From: Tepidiformaceae bacterium
GTDB taxonomy: Bacteria; Chloroflexota; Dehalococcoidia; Tepidiformales; Tepidiformaceae
NCBI GenBank assembly: GCA_963422605.2
Contig: CAXXUF010000002.1
Coordinates: 1,781,848-1,845,847 of the forward strand
DNA: 64,000 bases
Direction of reading: 5' to 3'
This document shows, one piece after another, positions 55,774 to 60,938 of the stretch. The position numbers and the translations under genes were made by a program. Positions within the stretch are counted from its first letter, which is position 1. Each line of letters begins with the position of its first letter. Below the pieces are notes generated by a model, which did no database searches, was not told where the DNA came from, and worked only from the letters and a program-made list of their open reading frames with translations.

Positions 55774-56567
55774 GGAGCTCCCCCGGCGGGCGCGAAGCCG
55801 TGGTGCGCGAGGATGGCGGCGCTTGCGTGCGAGGTGGCGAAGGCGAGGAAGGCGCGTGCGGACGCGCGCTTGCTGAGGAGCGCGATACGGTAGCCGGCGG
55901 GCGCCTGGAAGCGCGCGGGGATGGCCACCGCGCGCACGCCGGGGCGCATCGCGCCCGCGAGATCGCTCGCGTAGACGATGGCGGCGTCAGCCTCGCCGAG
56001 TTCGACCTTTGCGAGGGCAGCGCGCACGCTCGGCTCGTTGCTGCGGACGTTCGCGAGCACGCGCGCAGCGAAGTCCGGGGCGAGGGTGCCCGCCGTGTCC
56101 GCGAGCGCGAGCGCCCGGCGTGCGTAGCGGCCCGCGGGCACGGTCTCGGCGGCGAGCACGAGGCGCAGGCCGGGCTCAGCGAGGTCCGCGAAGGTGGCGA
56201 CTCTCTCCCCGCCTTGCCTCGCCGCTGCCACCACGAGCGTGTTCTCCGCGAGCGCTCGCTGCTCGACGACGAGACCGGCGGCGGCGAGCGCCTCGACTTC
56301 GTCGGGACTCGCGCTCGCGAACACGTCGGCGGGGGCGCCTTCGAGCGCCTGTGTGCGGAGTGTCGCCGAGCCGGCGAAGGCGAGGCGGACCATCACGCCC
56401 GGATGCGTCGCCTCGAATGCCTCCGCCAGCTCTCCGAAGGCGTCCGTGAGCGAAGCCGCCGCCAGCACCGTGATGGTCTCGCGGCGCTCCCCGCCCCCTC
56501 CCTCCCTCCCCCCGCCGCACGCCCCTGTCGCGAGGACGGCGAGCGCGAGCCAGACGGCGATGCCCAT
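55770..56567 (-). CDS. modA: Molybdate ABC transporter substrate-binding lipoprotein ModA
   Basis: Track ORF 55770..56924 trimmed to ATG 56567 (MGIAVWLALAVLATGACGGG, a lipobox). Contains ITVLAAASLTDAFGELAEAF, LAFAGSATL and AAIVYASD. Confidence 0.88.
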   Translation of the reverse strand: MGIAVWLALAVLATGACGGGREGGGGERRETITVLAAASLTDAFGELAEAFEATHPGVMVRLAFAGSATLRTQALEGAPADVFASASPDEVEALAAAGLVVEQRALAENTLVVAAARQGGERVATFADLAEPGLRLVLAAETVPAGRYARRALALADTAGTLAPDFAARVLANVRSNEPSVRAALAKVELGEADAAIVYASDLAGAMRPGVRAVAIPARFQAPAGYRIALLSKRASARAFLAFATSHASAAILAHHGFAPAGGAP

Positions 56568-56721
56568 GCGAAGGCTCACGCTGGGGCGGCAGGCGAGGGC
56601 AGCGTTGCGAGATGGCTCCGCAGCCAGTCGAGAGTGGCGTCCGCGGCGGAGAGCTTCGAGTGCGCGACGAGGCACGCAGCGCCCCCCCTTGCGCTGGCGA
56701 CCGACCGTGCGGCGGTCTGCC

Positions 56722-57528
56722 TCAGCTCGCGAAAGCCGCGCGCATGGCTTCGAGGCGGGCCTCCACGCCCTCGCGCGTGTCCTCGTGCGTGACGATGTAG
56801 AGCGCGTTCTCACGGATGGCGTCGAGCACGCGGCCCGCGACCTCCTCTGGCGGCATGCCCGCCGCAATCCCCTGGCGGATGGGCTCGGCGTGATCGGGCA
56901 CGTCCTCAGGGCCGCCGTGCGCATCCGGTCGGTTCCGTCCCGCCTCCACGATGCGTGTCGCCACTCCGCCCGGGCAGAGCACGGAGACGCCGATGCCGAG
57001 CGACGCGAGATCCGCGCGCAGGTGCTCGGACATGCCCACGACGGCCTGCTTCGAGGCCACGTAGGAGGCCATGCCCGGCGGTGCGAAAAGACCCGCGCTC
57101 GAAGCCGTGTTCACGATGTGCGCCTCGCCCCCCTGCTCGATCATGCGCGGGAGGAACTGCGTTACACCGTTCACCACGCCGCCCAGGTTCACCGACATCA
57201 CCCAGTCCCAGTCGGCGTCGCTCATCTCGCCGGCGGGGCCGAAGGTCACCACGCCCGCGTTATTGCAGAGTGTGTGCACGCCTCCGAAGGCGGCGAACGC
57301 CTCGTCCGCGAGGGCCTTCACGGAGGCGCGGTCGGCGACATCAGTGCGGATGGCGATCGCGCTGCCACCCCCCGCACTGATCGCCTTCGCTACGCCCTCG
57401 GCCGCATCGCGGTCGATATCCGAGACCACGACCGCCATGCCCTCCGCCGCAAAGGCACGGCAGAGTGCCTCGCCGATGCCGCTGCCGCCGCCCGTCACGA
57501 CCGCCGTCTTGCCAGCTCCCAGTTCCAT
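56722..57528 (-). CDS. SDR-family oxidoreductase
   Basis: 268 aa, GKTAVVTGGGSGIGEA, NNAG, NTASSAG...YVASKQA. Confidence 0.9.
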   Translation of the reverse strand: MELGAGKTAVVTGGGSGIGEALCRAFAAEGMAVVVSDIDRDAAEGVAKAISAGGGSAIAIRTDVADRASVKALADEAFAAFGGVHTLCNNAGVVTFGPAGEMSDADWDWVMSVNLGGVVNGVTQFLPRMIEQGGEAHIVNTASSAGLFAPPGMASYVASKQAVVGMSEHLRADLASLGIGVSVLCPGGVATRIVEAGRNRPDAHGGPEDVPDHAEPIRQGIAAGMPPEEVAGRVLDAIRENALYIVTHEDTREGVEARLEAMRAAFAS

Positions 57529-57627
57529 CGTCGCCTCCCGCGAACGCGCATCTTACCGGTTTGGGGCGCGGGGGAGGGGATCCCTGTGTCGCTGTCGTCT
57601 AGGCTCGAACCCGCCGTGAGGTGTACC

Positions 57628-58299
57628 GTGTCCTCTGCAGGAAGGAGTCTGATCGCGCTGGTTCCCGTGGAACCGAAGCTCTATCACATCGTCCACGTCG
57701 ATCGGCTGCCCTCGATCATTGATGCGGATCAGCTTTGGTGCGATGCAGAGATGGCGAAACGCAGCGGGGTCGGAACCAGCATCGGGATGAGCAAGATCAA
57801 ACAGCGGCGTCTCGAAGAGCTGACTCTCAGCAGCCATCCCGATATCCACGTTGGAGAGTGCGTTCCCTTCTACTTCTACCCACGCTCCGTCATGCTCTAC
57901 GTAATCCACAAGCATAACGACTCTGAGTTGGCCTACCGTGGCGGCCAAGGTCCCATCATCCACATGGAAACAGATCTGCGTCGGGTGGCCGCTTGGGCGG
58001 ATGAGCACAAACGACGCTGGGCCTTCACGACATCCAACGCCGGGTCGTATCACTTCGAGGACTACTCGGATATTGGGCAACTGGATAAGCTCAACTGGGA
58101 CGCGATACAGGCTCGCGACTGGAGGGGCGAGCGAAAGGAGGGCAAGCAGGCTGAGTTCCTGATGGAGCGCTCGTTCTCGTGGAATCTGGTTGAGCGCATC
58201 GGTGTCCTGTCCGCTGAAATCCGAAATCAGGCGCTGGGGACGGTCCACGCAGCCGTGCATCGTCCGCCTGTCGAGGTCAGGCGAGACTGGTACTATTAA
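57628..58299 (+). CDS. darT: DarT ssDNA thymidine ADP-ribosyltransferase toxin (DUF4433)
   Basis: Last ~223 aa of shadow ORF 56194..58299. Contains PKLYHIVHVDRLPSII, ECVPFYFYPRSVMLYV, NWDAIQARDW, the catalytic-type KQAEFLMERSFSW, and C-terminal RRDWYY. Start is uncertain: GTG 57616, 57628 or 57667, or CTG 57658, which lies 10 nt after a GGAAGGAG SD. Confidence 0.9.
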   Translation: MSSAGRSLIALVPVEPKLYHIVHVDRLPSIIDADQLWCDAEMAKRSGVGTSIGMSKIKQRRLEELTLSSHPDIHVGECVPFYFYPRSVMLYVIHKHNDSELAYRGGQGPIIHMETDLRRVAAWADEHKRRWAFTTSNAGSYHFEDYSDIGQLDKLNWDAIQARDWRGERKEGKQAEFLMERSFSWNLVERIGVLSAEIRNQALGTVHAAVHRPPVEVRRDWYY

Positions 58300-58311
58300 C
58301 TGGTACTATTA
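58286..58311. repeat. Perfect 13-bp tandem duplication ACTGGTACTATTA x2 spanning the darT stop codon
   Basis: Read directly: 58286-58298 equals 58299-58311. Copy 1 carries TGG TAC TAT TAA (the darT end). Copy 2 fills most of the darT-darG spacer. Confidence 0.9.
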
Positions 58312-58322
58312 GCTGAAGGCAC

Positions 58323-59390
58323 ATGATCGAACATAAGACCGGTGACCTGTTCAACGAGGATGTGGAGGCTGTCGTCAACAGTGTCAACTGTGTTGGTGTC
58401 ATGGGGCGCGGGATTGCGCTCCAGTTCAAGAACACCTTCCCCGAGAACTTCAAAGCGTACGCGACCGCCTGCAAGCGTGGGGAGGTTGCGCCTGGGCGGA
58501 TGTTCGTGTTCGAGACGGGTCGGCTGACGAACCCACGCTACATTATCAACTTCCCGACAAAGCGTCATTGGCGGGGCAAGAGCCGGATGGGGGACATCGA
58601 AGCTGGCCTTGAAGCGTTGGCGCGGGAGATTACAGAACGGAACATCCGCTCGATCGCGCTCCCGCCGCTCGGAAGCGATCTGGGTGGCCTGCGGTGGGCT
58701 GAGGTGCGCCCGCGCATCGAAGCGGTGCTGGAGGGCATCGATGATCTGAAGGCCGTTGTGTTCGGACCCGGCAGCGCACCGACCGATGGTCGACCCAACC
58801 GTTCGACCGGCGCGCCGAAGATGACGCTAGCGCGGGTGGCACTGGTCAGTCTGATCGACCGCTACCTCAAGGGCCTGCTCGATCCATCGATAACGCTTCT
58901 GGAAGTTCACAAGCTCATGTACTTCCTGCAGACTGCGGGTGAGCCTCTGAGATTGAACTTCCAGAAGGAGTACTACGGTCCGTATGCGGAGAACCTGCGG
59001 CACGTTCTGAAGAAGGTTGAAGGGCATTACATTTCAGGCTATGCCGATGGGGGGGATGCGCCTGGCAAGGAGATCGAACTCGTTCCGGGTACCGTCAGGG
59101 ATGCGGATGACTGGCTTGCTGATCATCCAGAGACGAAGGGGCGGTTGGACCGTGTGGGTGCGCTCGTTGATGGATTCGAGTCGTCGTTCGGCTTGGAGCT
59201 GCTGACGACAGTCCACTGGATCGCTGCAAGGTATCCATCCGCGACCGAGGAAGAGATCGTTGGGCGTATCTACGATTGGGGCCCGCAAAAGCGGCAATTC
59301 TCACAGCGTCAGATACGCTTGGCGCTTCAGGTGCTTCGGGAGAAGGGCTGGCTGGACTCCGACGGTGGCTCTCCGGCACACGCGGGGTAG
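58323..59390 (+). CDS. darG: DarG macrodomain antitoxin (DNA ADP-ribosyl glycohydrolase) with C-terminal DarG-type domain
   Basis: 355 aa, MIEHKTGDLFNEDVEAVVNSVNCVGVMGRGIALQFKNTFPENF...IINFPTKRHWRGKS...IALPPLGSDLGGL (TARG1-like macrodomain), then about 200 aa of helical domain. GAAGG SD before the ATG. Confidence 0.92.
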   Translation: MIEHKTGDLFNEDVEAVVNSVNCVGVMGRGIALQFKNTFPENFKAYATACKRGEVAPGRMFVFETGRLTNPRYIINFPTKRHWRGKSRMGDIEAGLEALAREITERNIRSIALPPLGSDLGGLRWAEVRPRIEAVLEGIDDLKAVVFGPGSAPTDGRPNRSTGAPKMTLARVALVSLIDRYLKGLLDPSITLLEVHKLMYFLQTAGEPLRLNFQKEYYGPYAENLRHVLKKVEGHYISGYADGGDAPGKEIELVPGTVRDADDWLADHPETKGRLDRVGALVDGFESSFGLELLTTVHWIAARYPSATEEEIVGRIYDWGPQKRQFSQRQIRLALQVLREKGWLDSDGGSPAHAG

Positions 59391-60938
59391 GTGGGTTCGT
59401 GGCACGATAGCGGCGTGACGGCGGCTTCGGGGGAGTATCGCAGCGTGGGCATCATCGGCGGGGGCACCGCCGGCTACCTCACCGCGCTCGCCCTGCGCAA
59501 GAAGCTGCCGCACCTGCGCGTCACCCTCATCGAGTCTCCCTCCATCCCCATCATCGGCGTGGGCGAGGGCACGACCCCGATCATGGTCAAGTTCCTCCAC
59601 GCCTACCTCGAGCGCGACGTGCATGAGCTGTTCCGCAAGGTGCGGCCCACCTGGAAGTTCGGGGTGAAGTTCGAGTGGGGGCAGCCGGGCGAATCTTTCT
59701 TTAACTACGCCTTTCACCCGGGGCCGGTGCTCGATTCCGTCTACTACGGCGGCGACTTCAACGAGTACTCGCTCGGCTCGCTGCTCATCTCGAACGCGCG
59801 CGCGCCCATCCTCGCGGGCGAGGACGGGAAGCTCACCTCGTTCATCGACCGCATCCCCTTCGCCTACCACCTCGACAACGGTCGCTTCGTCGCGTACCTG
59901 CGCGAGGAGGCCGTGTGCGATGGCGTGGAGCTGCTCGAACGCTCCGTCACCGCCTTCGTTCCCGCCGGGGAAGGCGAGGGTCTCGACCACATCGTCATGG
60001 ACGGCGGCGAGGAGCGACGCTTCGACCTGTACGTCGATTGCACCGGCTTCCGTGCCGAGATCATGGGCGAGGCGCTGGGGTCGCCCTTCCTGAGCTACGA
60101 GGACAGCCTCTTCTGCGACCGCGCGATCGTGGCGAACGTGCCCCACGGCGGCCACATCAAGCCGTTCACCACGGCGGAGACGATGGACGCGGGCTGGTGC
60201 TGGAACACGCCCTCGGTGGAGGGCGACCACCGCGGCTACGTCTTCTCCTCGCGCTTCATCCCGGACGAGGCAGCGGTGGCGGAGATGCGTGCGAAGAACG
60301 CGGGCATGGGCGAGCACCGCGTGATTCGCTTCAGGACAGGCCGGCGCGAGCACTTCTGGAAGGGGAACGTGGTCGCCATCGGCAACTCCTACGGCTTCGT
60401 CGAGCCGCTCGAATCGACCGGCCTGCACATGATCATCCTCGAAATCAACCAGCTCGTGCTGAACTTCCCCCGCTCGAAGCGCGACACGGCCATCCGCCGC
60501 ATCGTGAATCGCACCCTGAACGCACACTGGGACGATGTGCGCTGGTTCCTCGCCATCCACTACCGCTTCAACCGCAAGCTCTCGACGCCGTTCTGGCAGG
60601 CGTGCCGCGAGGGAGTCGATATCAGTGGCGCGGAGGAGCGCGTGGGCCTCTTCCGCGAGCGCACGCCGCTCACCTACCGGCAGTCGCAGTTCTTCAAGCC
60701 GGAGGAGGTGTTCGGCGACTTCGCCTACGACGTGCTCCTGCTTGGCCAGCGCGTGCCCGGCCGCTATCTGGAGGCGAGCCAGAGCCGTGTCGACTGGCAG
60801 AAGCGCACGGAGGGGCTGCGACAGCTGGCGGCACGCGCCCTCCCCCAGGAGAAGGCGCTCGAAGCGCTTGCGTCCGCGCCCCGCGAGGCGCTCGGCAGTC
60901 TGGTCACGTCGCCCGATACCTGGGTCGTCTGGCCCTAG
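59391..60938 (+). CDS. Flavin-dependent halogenase family protein (tryptophan-halogenase-like)
   Basis: 515 aa. GxGxxG (IIGGGTAGY), IGVGEGTTP, the Lys position in TWKFGVKF (aligned to PrnA GAFKAAIKF as I recall it), WxWxIP variant GWCWNTP, and GFVEPLESTGL. Starts right at the darG stop; a later GTG (about 59445) is possible. Confidence 0.85.
   Translation: MGSWHDSGVTAASGEYRSVGIIGGGTAGYLTALALRKKLPHLRVTLIESPSIPIIGVGEGTTPIMVKFLHAYLERDVHELFRKVRPTWKFGVKFEWGQPGESFFNYAFHPGPVLDSVYYGGDFNEYSLGSLLISNARAPILAGEDGKLTSFIDRIPFAYHLDNGRFVAYLREEAVCDGVELLERSVTAFVPAGEGEGLDHIVMDGGEERRFDLYVDCTGFRAEIMGEALGSPFLSYEDSLFCDRAIVANVPHGGHIKPFTTAETMDAGWCWNTPSVEGDHRGYVFSSRFIPDEAAVAEMRAKNAGMGEHRVIRFRTGRREHFWKGNVVAIGNSYGFVEPLESTGLHMIILEINQLVLNFPRSKRDTAIRRIVNRTLNAHWDDVRWFLAIHYRFNRKLSTPFWQACREGVDISGAEERVGLFRERTPLTYRQSQFFKPEEVFGDFAYDVLLLGQRVPGRYLEASQSRVDWQKRTEGLRQLAARALPQEKALEALASAPREALGSLVTSPDTWVVWP

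Follow-up and report, generated by a model that had tools for sequence, protein, structure and literature searches.

A lower-GC patch in the window (the whole 64,000-nucleotide stretch analysed here) holds two adjacent genes that had been predicted to encode an ADP-ribosylating toxin, DarT, and its antitoxin, DarG. DarTG2 is a hybrid type II/IV toxin-antitoxin system and also an abortive-infection-type anti-phage system. This kind of system is already well known, and the locus changes nothing in what is known about DarTG; the questions that it raises are whether the module is complete, whether its toxin gene still has a usable start, and how the pair came to lie between two core genes. The features on which the answers rest are collected in Table 1.

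Table 1. Features of the darT-darG locus and its surroundings (positions in the window).
Feature	Position	Strand	Basis
Left flank: short-chain dehydrogenase gene, core, divergent from the cassette	56722..57528	-	Pfam adh_short, 182 bits
Inserted DarTG cassette, about 1.84 kb, lower GC	about 57562..59397	+	bounds against the empty site in congeners
GGGGGAGGGG, Shine-Dalgarno-like run with GGAGG (57573-57577) 8 nt upstream of GTG 57586	57570..57579	+	read from sequence
darT, longest plausible ORF, 237 aa (P0122, public gene call)	57586..58299	+	profile matches
GGAAGGAG, resembling a Shine-Dalgarno sequence, 7 nt upstream of the conserved start position	57640..57647	+	read from sequence
GCG codon where aligned homologues start with ATG or GTG	57655..57657	+	DNA alignment (as assembled)
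DarT (DUF4433) ADP-ribosyltransferase domain	57679..58296	+	profile matches to residues 22-227
H24 (57616-start numbering), equivalent of H13	57685-57687	+	alignment to Thermus DarT2
R65 (57616-start numbering), equivalent of R51	57808-57810	+	alignment to Thermus DarT2
Y86 (57616-start numbering), equivalent of Y71	57871-57873	+	alignment to Thermus DarT2
M93 (57616-start numbering), equivalent of M78	57892-57894	+	alignment to Thermus DarT2
E180 (57616-start numbering), equivalent of E160	58153-58155	+	alignment to Thermus DarT2
Perfect 13-bp tandem duplication, ACTGGTACTATTA x2, across the darT stop (family D8)	58286..58311	+	repeat search (as assembled)
darT stop TAA	58297-58299	+	read from sequence
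darG, 355 aa, start ATG 58323 with GAAGG 5 nt upstream	58323..59390	+	NCBIfam, PADLOC, Pfam
DarG macrodomain, aa 1-151	58323-58775	+	Pfam Macro, PDB matches
DarG Lys80 (catalytic)	58560-58562	+	FPTK80RHW83; Trp83 also present
DarG DarT-binding C-terminal domain (predicted), aa 186-336	58878-59330	+	7yk3_B match
Right flank: tryptophan-halogenase-like flavoenzyme gene	59415..60938	+	Pfam Trp_halogenase, 364 bits

Identity of the gene pair

Both genes matched curated models of their families, with E-values from 1e-60 to 1e-134. The product of the first gene scored 228 bits against the NCBIfam toxin_DarT equivalog NF048013 (cut-off 150), 204 bits against Pfam DarT PF14487 (DUF4433; cut-off 22.5, E = 2.7e-60) and 212 bits against the PADLOC DarT model (2e-63). 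The DarT hallmarks on which the original prediction relied are all present in the toxin frame, namely LYHIVHVDRLPSII from nt 57679, VPFYFYPRSVMLY from 57862, KQAEFLMERSFSW from 58144 and RRDWYY from 58279, and the glutamate singled out as catalytic, in KQAEFLM, is the one that aligns with E160 of Thermus DarT. At the equivalents of all five members of the Thermus DarT2 catalytic set, H13, R51, Y71, M78 and E160, whose roles are described in PMC9967889, DarT has the identical residue. An AF2 model of DarT (pLDDT 90.9) was matched by Foldseek to the DarT2 structure 7omy with a TM of 0.88-0.90 and an rmsd of 2.0 A, and to Mycobacterium tuberculosis (Mtb) DarT with a TM of about 0.8.

The second gene scored 446 bits against the NCBIfam antitoxin_DarG equivalog NF048014 (cut-off 250), 432 bits against PADLOC DarG (2.9e-130) and 86 bits against Pfam Macro (2.2e-24). 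The claim that it encodes a TARG1-type macrodomain was borne out by this last match, by the presence of K80 and W83 and by matches to TARG1 itself at about 1e-5; the motifs cited in its favour, VNCVGVMGRGIALQFK from 58383, FPTKRHWRGKS from 58551 and ALPPLGSDLGGL from 58656, were found as well. At the sequence level the macrodomain matches PDB entries 5m3i and 5m31 at about 1e-50. The long C-terminal domain that had been proposed is also there: aa 186-336 match 7yk3_B, the Mtb DarG C-domain chain of a DarTG complex, at 2.9e-19 by sequence, and in Foldseek searches with the DarG model the macrodomain reached a TMt of 0.90 and the C-domain one of 0.82-0.84. Both proteins thus align with characterised, structurally solved counterparts from Thermus and M. 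tuberculosis in sequence and in predicted fold, and the motif and profile matches are far above chance level.

The two genes lie on the same strand, darT first, with a 23-nt spacer that contains GAAGG. The same order is found at the three homologous loci L036, L037 and L038, and both the order and the spacing are typical of the DarTG family. The three loci lack the 13-bp duplication that runs across the darT stop, and their spacers measure 6-18 nt; the spacer has been lengthened to 23 nt here because of that duplication.

Family domains, fold and catalytic residues are present in both proteins. Judging from profiles and models, the pair is probably a complete two-gene DarTG2 module of the thymidine type, its activity being assigned by homology. 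We favour DarTG2 over DarTG1 because the antitoxin is a macrodomain DarG and not a NADAR protein, which is how DarTG2, with its thymidine chemistry, is defined in PMC11543638. The gene downstream of darT gave no match to a NADAR or YbiA-like antitoxin; it consists of Macro plus the DarG C-domain.

Start codon and active site of darT

The original prediction placed the toxin gene inside a 701-aa ORF, which indeed spans 56194-58299, as the frame has no stop codon upstream. It also called the start ambiguous. That judgement stands, but the start that it gave, 57616, has several in-frame rivals, and the full set of candidates is GTG 57586, GTG 57616, GTG 57628, ATC 57652, CTG 57658 and GTG 57667. 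The start is truly ambiguous because the homologues' start codon falls on a GCG in darT. In a DNA-level comparison with three homologues, the codons aligned on GCG 57655-57657 are ATG in L036 and L037 and GTG in L038, the closest homologue, whose start differs from the GCG by a single T-to-C change. Exactly seven residues precede the K(I/L/V)YH motif in 69 of the 120 nearest homologues, which puts their start at the GCG position and makes it the commonest one. As had been pointed out, the best-placed Shine-Dalgarno sequence, GGAAGGAG (57640-57647), points at the non-canonical CTG 57658; the homologues' start is the GCG just before that CTG, and the well-spaced motif faces only ATC or CTG. The canonical start codon of darT thus appears to have been lost, and toxin expression would be uncertain. 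The gene caller chose GTG 57586, with GGAGG 8 nt upstream, and GTG 57628 is accompanied by GAGGTG; GGGGGAGGGG, in which that GGAGG lies, probably belongs to the native intergenic region, similar G-rich runs being found in empty sites.

The toxin has also changed near its active site. A near-invariant Cys two residues past the catalytic Tyr is replaced by Tyr (TAT at 57877-57879, as assembled); 112 of the 120 nearest homologues have the motif, and this is the sole such case among them. DarT is off-consensus at 5 of 94 highly conserved columns, compared with a median of 2 and a range of 0-7 among its relatives, while the departures of DarG are average in number. PMC9967889 mentions neither C73 nor P168 of the Thermus protein.

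These observations bear on a second reading, in which the DarTG2 assignment stands but loss of the start codon, perhaps in combination with the Cys-to-Tyr change, has silenced the toxin at translation or strongly attenuated it; the locus would then be mainly a gene for the de-ADP-ribosylating DarG, with a cryptic or weak toxin beside it, in early decay or as a low-toxicity allele. We regard this reading as possible but unlikely. The GCG at the commonest start position, one T-to-C step from the GTG of L038, the Shine-Dalgarno sequence left facing ATC or CTG, the unique Tyr and the more than typical divergence of DarT alongside an average DarG all speak for it, as does toxin inactivation at the same slot in two congeners, where darT is split by an IS5-like element (G024) or apparently frameshifted (G007). 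However, the frame of more than 210 codons is fully open with the five mapped catalytic residues intact, and the five departures fall inside the relatives' range. In addition, canonical GTGs lie upstream (57586 and 57628) and downstream (57667), and any of them would yield a complete DarT domain, the family profiles starting only at L22. In a related and similarly tentative proposal, darT would be a naturally attenuated allele, started at CTG or ATC behind the retained Shine-Dalgarno sequence or at a displaced GTG and further weakened by the Cys-to-Tyr change, to give a low dose of DarT under an excess of DarG.

An accessory cassette in a fast-changing slot

GC content drops from 0.70-0.76 to 0.58-0.61 across 57500-59250, and the cassette has a GC of 0.597 compared with 0.691 for the window and a GC3 of 0.72 compared with 0.87 and 0.92 in the flanking genes; an earlier hand count of 55% GC at 57901-57960 was exact (0.55). 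The suggestion that the region is accessory is confirmed directly by congeners, which have both flanking genes adjacent without the cassette between them. Such empty sites, seen in at least 7 congeners, leave just 81-102 bp between the flanking genes, and similarity to them ends at about 57558-57561 on the left and restarts at 59398 on the right. The short-chain dehydrogenase on the left shows 77-87% protein identity in all congeners examined. On the right, the true start of the halogenase-like gene is likely to be GTG 59415 rather than GTG 59391: a start at 59391, abutting the darG stop, was rejected on the grounds that the start called at the syntenic locus of L037 corresponds to 59415 and that similarity to the empty sites begins only at 59398.

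Comparison with empty sites is the only evidence of insertion. darT and darG are the sole contents of the cassette, no integrase or transposase gene was found in it, and flanking direct, inverted or att-like terminal repeats were limited to short ones at chance level. A small inversion, considered as the cause of the odd G-rich right junction (59376-59397), was rejected, just 9 of 14-16 bases fitting by eye. Simple scans returned no promoter-like or terminator-like sites (0.4 and 1.4 expected), and Rfam gave no match at E <= 1 on either strand of 57000-60000. Since no terminator-like site was found after darG, the halogenase-like gene may now be co-transcribed with darTG. Antisense ORFs at 57553-58260, 58296-58568 and 59095-59379 (minus strand) had no Pfam match and were treated as putative shadow frames.

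Given the drop in GC and GC3, the empty sites in congeners and outside matches that are closer than the in-site genes of congeners, the cassette is regarded as horizontally acquired. The best outside matches, to unrelated database proteins, are 66-75% identical, compared with 46-55% for the DarT and macro genes found in the slot of congeners. Eight congeners carry DarT with a macro-only DarG at the same slot, with the same two flanking genes, orientation and two-gene logic; their DarG, of about 182 aa, has no C-terminal DarT-binding domain and has a ~22-aa insert in the macrodomain, and their DarTs group apart, in a clade of their own (support 99/99). Descent from such cassettes was rejected on the basis of these identities and that clade. 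A long DarTG was found in the slot of one other genome only, L037. Joint inheritance of the cassette with L037 was not supported, since the window and L037 do not group as sisters on the tree of the halogenase gene (AU p = 2e-6, for one gene beside the hotspot and a group named after the tree had been seen); the DarT tree leaves the nearest relative of the window's DarT unresolved.

Other relatives hold VapBC, GmrSD or still other genes at this position, and on a single-gene tree of 28 genomes the cargo has changed at least 15 times, while both flanking core genes are kept in all of the 27 congeners searched. Within this genus of uncultured Tepidiformaceae (Dehalococcoidia), the slot is a small and fast-changing hotspot of toxin-antitoxin and defence genes.

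This setting weighs on a third reading, in which the module is active but serves mainly the control of the host's own replication and growth or the stabilisation of the locus by addiction, not phage defence. Mtb DarTG controls replication and stationary-phase growth, as described in PMC12170906, and of the solved DarG macrodomains that of the Mtb system (Rv0059/Rv0060; PDB 5m3i, 7yk3) scores best, at 1.1e-50 and with 55% identity in Foldseek; the C-terminal DarT-binding domain matched above is from this system too. Its thymidine-specific DarT, although distant (2e-10, 22-24% identity), aligns an Asn with Thermus H119, as does the DarT described here, which is encoded by a single copy in a small genome of 2.2 Mb. 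In contrast to the chromosomal, essential-antitoxin growth regulator of M. tuberculosis, however, the cassette is accessory, being absent in most congeners and exchangeable at the slot for VapBC, GmrSD and other cargo, as is typical of conflict systems and not of housekeeping regulators, and the gene for the closest DarT homologue, L038, adjoins a type I restriction HsdR gene and transposase fragments. Growth control and defence are not mutually exclusive, but growth control as the main role seems improbable.

Relation to known systems and meaning of the locus

LeRoux et al. 2022 reportedly described anti-phage DarTG2 systems in E. coli. The pair analysed here belongs to the same subfamily by definition (DarT plus a macrodomain DarG), a likeness by description, and like them it lies in accessory DNA amid other defence or toxin-antitoxin genes; we know of no phage of its uncultured host. 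The E. coli systems are reviewed in PMC11543638 and PMC11825919. The DarTG systems of Thermus aquaticus and Thermus sp. 2.9 (DarT2 plus macrodomain DarG; PDB 7omv-7on0, 5m31, 5m3e) share the order darT-then-darG. Their DarT matches ours at 3e-26, with an identity of only about 32%, and also ends in DWYY; the match to their DarG macrodomain reaches 9e-49, and K80 and W83 have the same numbering in both proteins. The differences lie in the toxin, where Thermus Cys73 is replaced by Tyr and the thymine-coordinating H119 aligns with Asn141, the latter in a loop alignment that at this identity is not decisive, and where the canonical start codon is missing. The SNAG motif is almost invariant within the clade of the window's DarT. 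Thermus DarT targets TNTC; the motif for the DarT described here is not predictable.

DarTG1 (DarT1 plus NADAR, guanosine-specific; PDB 8baq) shares the ADP-ribosyltransferase scaffold and the toxin-then-antitoxin operon logic. That the first gene belongs to this branch or to another ADP-ribosyltransferase family, or that the frames arose by chance in GC-rich DNA, is hardly credible and is refuted by the profile, PDB sequence and fold matches to DarT2 and DarG: many long shadow ORFs do occur in the window, the toxin frame is open for 701 codons and the DarT model has a weak fold match to 8baq (E = 1.7e-6), but its TM of 0.59-0.61 lies far below the values for DarT2, the antitoxin is a macrodomain protein, the antisense ORFs match nothing in Pfam, and chance is countered by the E-values against curated models.

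For the DarTG2 module that we favour, a mechanism can be proposed from homology and the family literature, not from these proteins. On single-stranded DNA, DarT would modify thymidine within a short sequence motif, using NAD+ to link ADP-ribose to the N3 atom, and the adduct would block replication. The TARG1-like macrodomain of DarG, with Lys80, would remove the adduct, and its C-terminal domain would bind DarT as a second route of neutralisation. Phage infection or another stress might then upset the balance, so that DarT modifies replicating DNA and both phage and cell replication stop.

The locus should be named darT/darG (DarTG2) in annotation, where neither the 701-aa nor the 237-aa reading of the toxin gene should stand without comment. 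Conservation of both flanking core genes throughout the congeners searched would make cargo turnover easy to compare at this slot. If the toxin is indeed an attenuated allele, it would parallel in nature the attenuated DarT2 variants that have been engineered for genome editing, in a slot where long and short DarTG, VapBC and GmrSD swap at roughly the pace of the flanking gene's divergence, and it would offer a modest natural example of cells tuning DarT dosage.

Identity and layout of the darT-darG pair

Profile searches assigned the product of the first gene to the DarT toxins (Pfam DarT, 204 bits, E = 2.7e-60, full 201-position model covered; NCBIfam equivalog toxin_DarT, 228 bits for a cut-off of 150; PADLOC DarT) and that of the second to the DarG antitoxins (NCBIfam equivalog antitoxin_DarG, 446 bits for a cut-off of 250, all 338 positions; PADLOC DarG, 432 bits; Pfam Macro). 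By sequence, DarT matched the solved structures of Thermus sp. 2.9 DarT (3e-26) and M. tuberculosis DarT (2e-10). Residues 1-151 of DarG matched the M. tuberculosis and Thermus DarG macrodomains (about 1e-50) and human TARG1 (about 1e-5), and residues 186-336 matched the C-terminal part of M. tuberculosis DarG as solved in complex with DarT (2.9e-19). When modelled with AlphaFold2 (pLDDT 90.9), DarT superposed on Thermus DarT2 with a TM of 0.88-0.90 (rmsd 2.0 Å), on M. tuberculosis DarT with a TM of about 0.8, and on the guanosine-specific E. coli DarT1 with a TM of only 0.59-0.61. The DarG model (pLDDT 80.6) folded into two domains resembling DarG macrodomains (TMt 0.90) and the M. tuberculosis DarG C-domain (TMt 0.82-0.84). 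Together, these profile, PADLOC, structure and fold matches support the original prediction of a DarT-DarG pair, whose quoted motifs were all found at the expected positions. Since a macrodomain antitoxin defines DarTG2 and a NADAR antitoxin DarTG1 (PMC11543638), the pair is, judged by its sequence, DarTG2.

Residue roles taken from PMC9967889 and PMC11543638 were mapped via sequence alignment to Thermus DarT2. H13, R51, Y71, M78 and E160 all aligned with identical residues, E160 falling on the Glu of KQAEFLM previously named as catalytic. Where Thermus DarT2 holds thymine with H119, our DarT aligns an Asn, as does the thymidine-specific M. tuberculosis DarT. Because this Asn is also nearly invariant within the clade of our DarT, it may be a clade feature rather than a defect. 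DarG carries FPTK80RHW83, in which K80 is the catalytic Lys and W83 the stacking Trp, both at the same residue numbers as in Thermus DarG.

By analogy with the family, DarT would use NAD+ to ADP-ribosylate thymidine at N3 in ssDNA and thus stall replication. The DarG macrodomain would remove the adduct while the C-terminal domain sequesters DarT, and phage infection or stress may create an imbalance that frees the toxin.

The darT frame lies, as originally described, inside a 701-aa ORF (56194-58299). It stays free of stops for 701 codons because it passes antisense through the GC-rich dehydrogenase gene, and it is therefore overextended by ORF lists (701 aa) and gene callers (237 aa in the public call). 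The darT stop codon lies within a perfect 13-bp tandem duplication (ACTGGTACTATTA x2, 58286-58311), which three homologous loci lack. With it, the spacer between darT and darG grows to more than twice its length, reaching 23 nt compared to 6-18 nt at homologous loci, while the darG SD (GAAGG) stays intact. Searches of the locus for Rfam families and for promoter-like or terminator-like sites found nothing, and antisense ORFs of the cassette region gave no family match.

Genes and candidate darT starts at the locus (window positions)
Feature	Position	Strand	Upstream signal	Basis or remark
adh_short dehydrogenase (left flank)	56722-57528	-		Pfam
darT	open from far upstream to TAA 58297-58299	+		ORF reading
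darT candidate start	GTG 57586	+	GGAGG 8 nt upstream	public call, 237 aa
darT candidate start	GTG 57616	+		canonical, in frame
darT candidate start	GTG 57628	+	GAGGTG precedes	canonical, in frame
darT candidate start	GTG 57667	+	no SD	canonical, in frame
darG	ATG 58323 to TAG 59388-59390	+		ORF reading
Trp_halogenase-like gene (right flank)	likely start GTG 59415			Pfam

Start of darT and integrity of the toxin

The start of darT had been called ambiguous, a view that the comparison with homologues both upheld and sharpened. Of the 120 nearest homologues, 69 begin exactly seven residues ahead of K(I/L/V)YH, and the homologues' start position corresponds here to GCG 57655-57657, which in DNA alignments matches the ATG of two homologous darT-darG loci (L036 and L037) and the GTG of L038, the locus with the closest DarT homologue, from which it differs by a single T-to-C change. 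An SD-like GGAAGGAG (57640-57647) lies 7 nt from the GCG codon and now faces only ATC 57652 and CTG 57658, the latter being the non-canonical start it was earlier said to serve. Among the canonical alternatives, the publicly called GTG 57586 would add 23 residues before the conserved start, a leader that in nearly all homologues is far shorter, and GTG 57667 still gives the whole domain because family models start at L22. The lost canonical start codon is a mildly unusual feature.

So is a second change: Tyr replaces the Cys of FYF-C-PRS (Thermus C73, two residues past catalytic Y71), a position occupied by Cys in all 111 other motif-bearing homologues among the 120 nearest. When departures from columns at least 90% conserved were counted per protein, DarT departed from 5 of 94 (relatives' median 2, range 0-7) and DarG, an average case, from 6 of 172 (median 4). 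In addition, two of eight darT copies with a macrodomain-only DarG in the same slot of congeners (27 genomes of the same genus) are disrupted, one split by an IS5-like DDE transposase (G024) and one apparently frameshifted (G007). The missing start, the unique Cys-to-Tyr change beside the catalytic Tyr, the above-median number of DarT departures and the disrupted congener copies mean that silencing or weakening of the toxin is a serious alternative. However, the darT frame is intact and the mapped catalytic residues are all present, and we consider this explanation rather unlikely, favouring an ordinary DarTG2 system.

Insertion of the cassette

The 2.18-Mb genome (2 contigs) encodes one DarT, and a sample of 301 Dehalococcoidia genomes contained 39 with DarT. 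DNA searches recovered both flanking genes in 27/27 congeners (75-88% nucleotide identity) and no counterpart of the DarTG stretch in most of them. The dehydrogenase-halogenase gap, read directly, measures 81-102 bp in seven congeners, and two more look equally empty from match coordinates. Similarity to the empty sites stops at about 57561 and restarts at 59398, delimiting an insert of about 1.84 kb. GC falls to 0.58-0.61 across 57500-59250 compared to 0.70-0.76 in the flanks (the hand count of 55% at 57901-57960 was exact on recount), and GC3 is 0.72 in the cassette and 0.87 and 0.92 in the flanking genes. The empty slots and this compositional drop show that the region is accessory, as had been proposed, and point to a foreign origin of the cassette. 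No integrase or transposase gene was found in the cassette, nor any flanking repeats.

A 515-aa halogenase-like ORF begins at the first base after the darG stop (GTG 59391). This ORF is probably eight codons too long, the call at L037 being equivalent to GTG 59415; empty-site similarity also begins only at 59398, past GTG 59391. GTG 59415 is the most likely start of the gene.

Most of the other sites examined (empty slots, VapBC, short DarTG cassettes and L037) retain a C-rich motif (CCCCTCCCAACCCCATCCG, CACCCCTCCCAACCCCATCCG) at the right junction, just before the halogenase leader, one of them as a diverged copy; the sites with GmrSD and DUF1828 do not. Its place in the window is taken by the G-rich ACACGCGGGGTAGGTGGGTTCG with the darG stop (59376-59397).

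Cargo of the slot and short DarG forms

Among the 27 congeners, the slot is empty in nine and holds DarT with a macrodomain-only DarG of about 182 aa in eight (L004, L005, L007, L008, L009, L016, L017 and L022; G006, G007, G022, G021, G015, G024, G043 and G042). The others contain a VapBC-like RHH and PIN pair (three), a 340-bp remnant of an RHH gene (two), a GmrSD-type (DUF262/DUF1524) restriction enzyme with a 123-132 aa ORF (two), a DUF6978-like and DUF1828 pair of 50% GC (one), 4.5 kb of Pro/Thr-rich repeat proteins (one), or a rearranged slot with the halogenase gene inverted and truncated (L023, G009); the remaining other-cargo loci are L019 and L020 (G004, G013), L024-L026 (G008, G011, G041), L021 (G010), L018 (G003), and L027 and L028 (G005, G012).

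Unlike our DarG, the short form lacks the DarT-binding C-domain and has some 22 aa inserted ahead of PRYIINFPTK, but both the catalytic Lys and the Trp are retained. DarG-like macrodomain proteins of 150-200 aa number in the thousands, so that this form is widespread and not confined to the genus; a limited look at the literature found no description of it. All three of the unrelated metagenome contigs sampled (L082, L083, L084) carry a macro-only DarG-like gene (152-187 aa) directly after a DarT gene; two of them adjoin HipBA and dnaX, with DarT called at only 148-161 aa.

In L038 (71% DarT identity), the DarTG pair is followed immediately by the HsdR gene of a type I restriction system and is also bordered by transposase fragments and an HTH gene. 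Such a defence-island context is reminiscent of the E. coli DarTG2 found inside a type I R-M locus.

Precisely this slot, between the same flanking genes, is occupied by a full-length DarT/DarG pair in L037, a metagenomic contig labelled Chloroflexota MAG, which aligns colinearly with the window along 4.2 kb (75.5% nucleotide identity). On a halogenase-gene tree, a single gene adjoining the hotspot, a sister relationship of the window and L037 was rejected (AU p = 2e-6), and at least 15 cargo-state changes were required among 28 genomes, barely fewer than with shuffled cargo labels (mean 16.9; 15 or fewer in 34 of 300 shuffles). Many database proteins of other lineages share 66-75% identity with DarT and DarG, compared to only 46-55% for the congeners' short-form cassettes, whose DarTs (46-53% identical to ours) form a separate clade (support 99/99). 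These identities and the separate clade indicate that the slot is filled repeatedly and independently, as is usual for toxin-antitoxin and defence hotspots. The DarTG2 system itself is ordinary and of a kind already known, and the rapid turnover of cargo at its slot is a mildly unusual feature.
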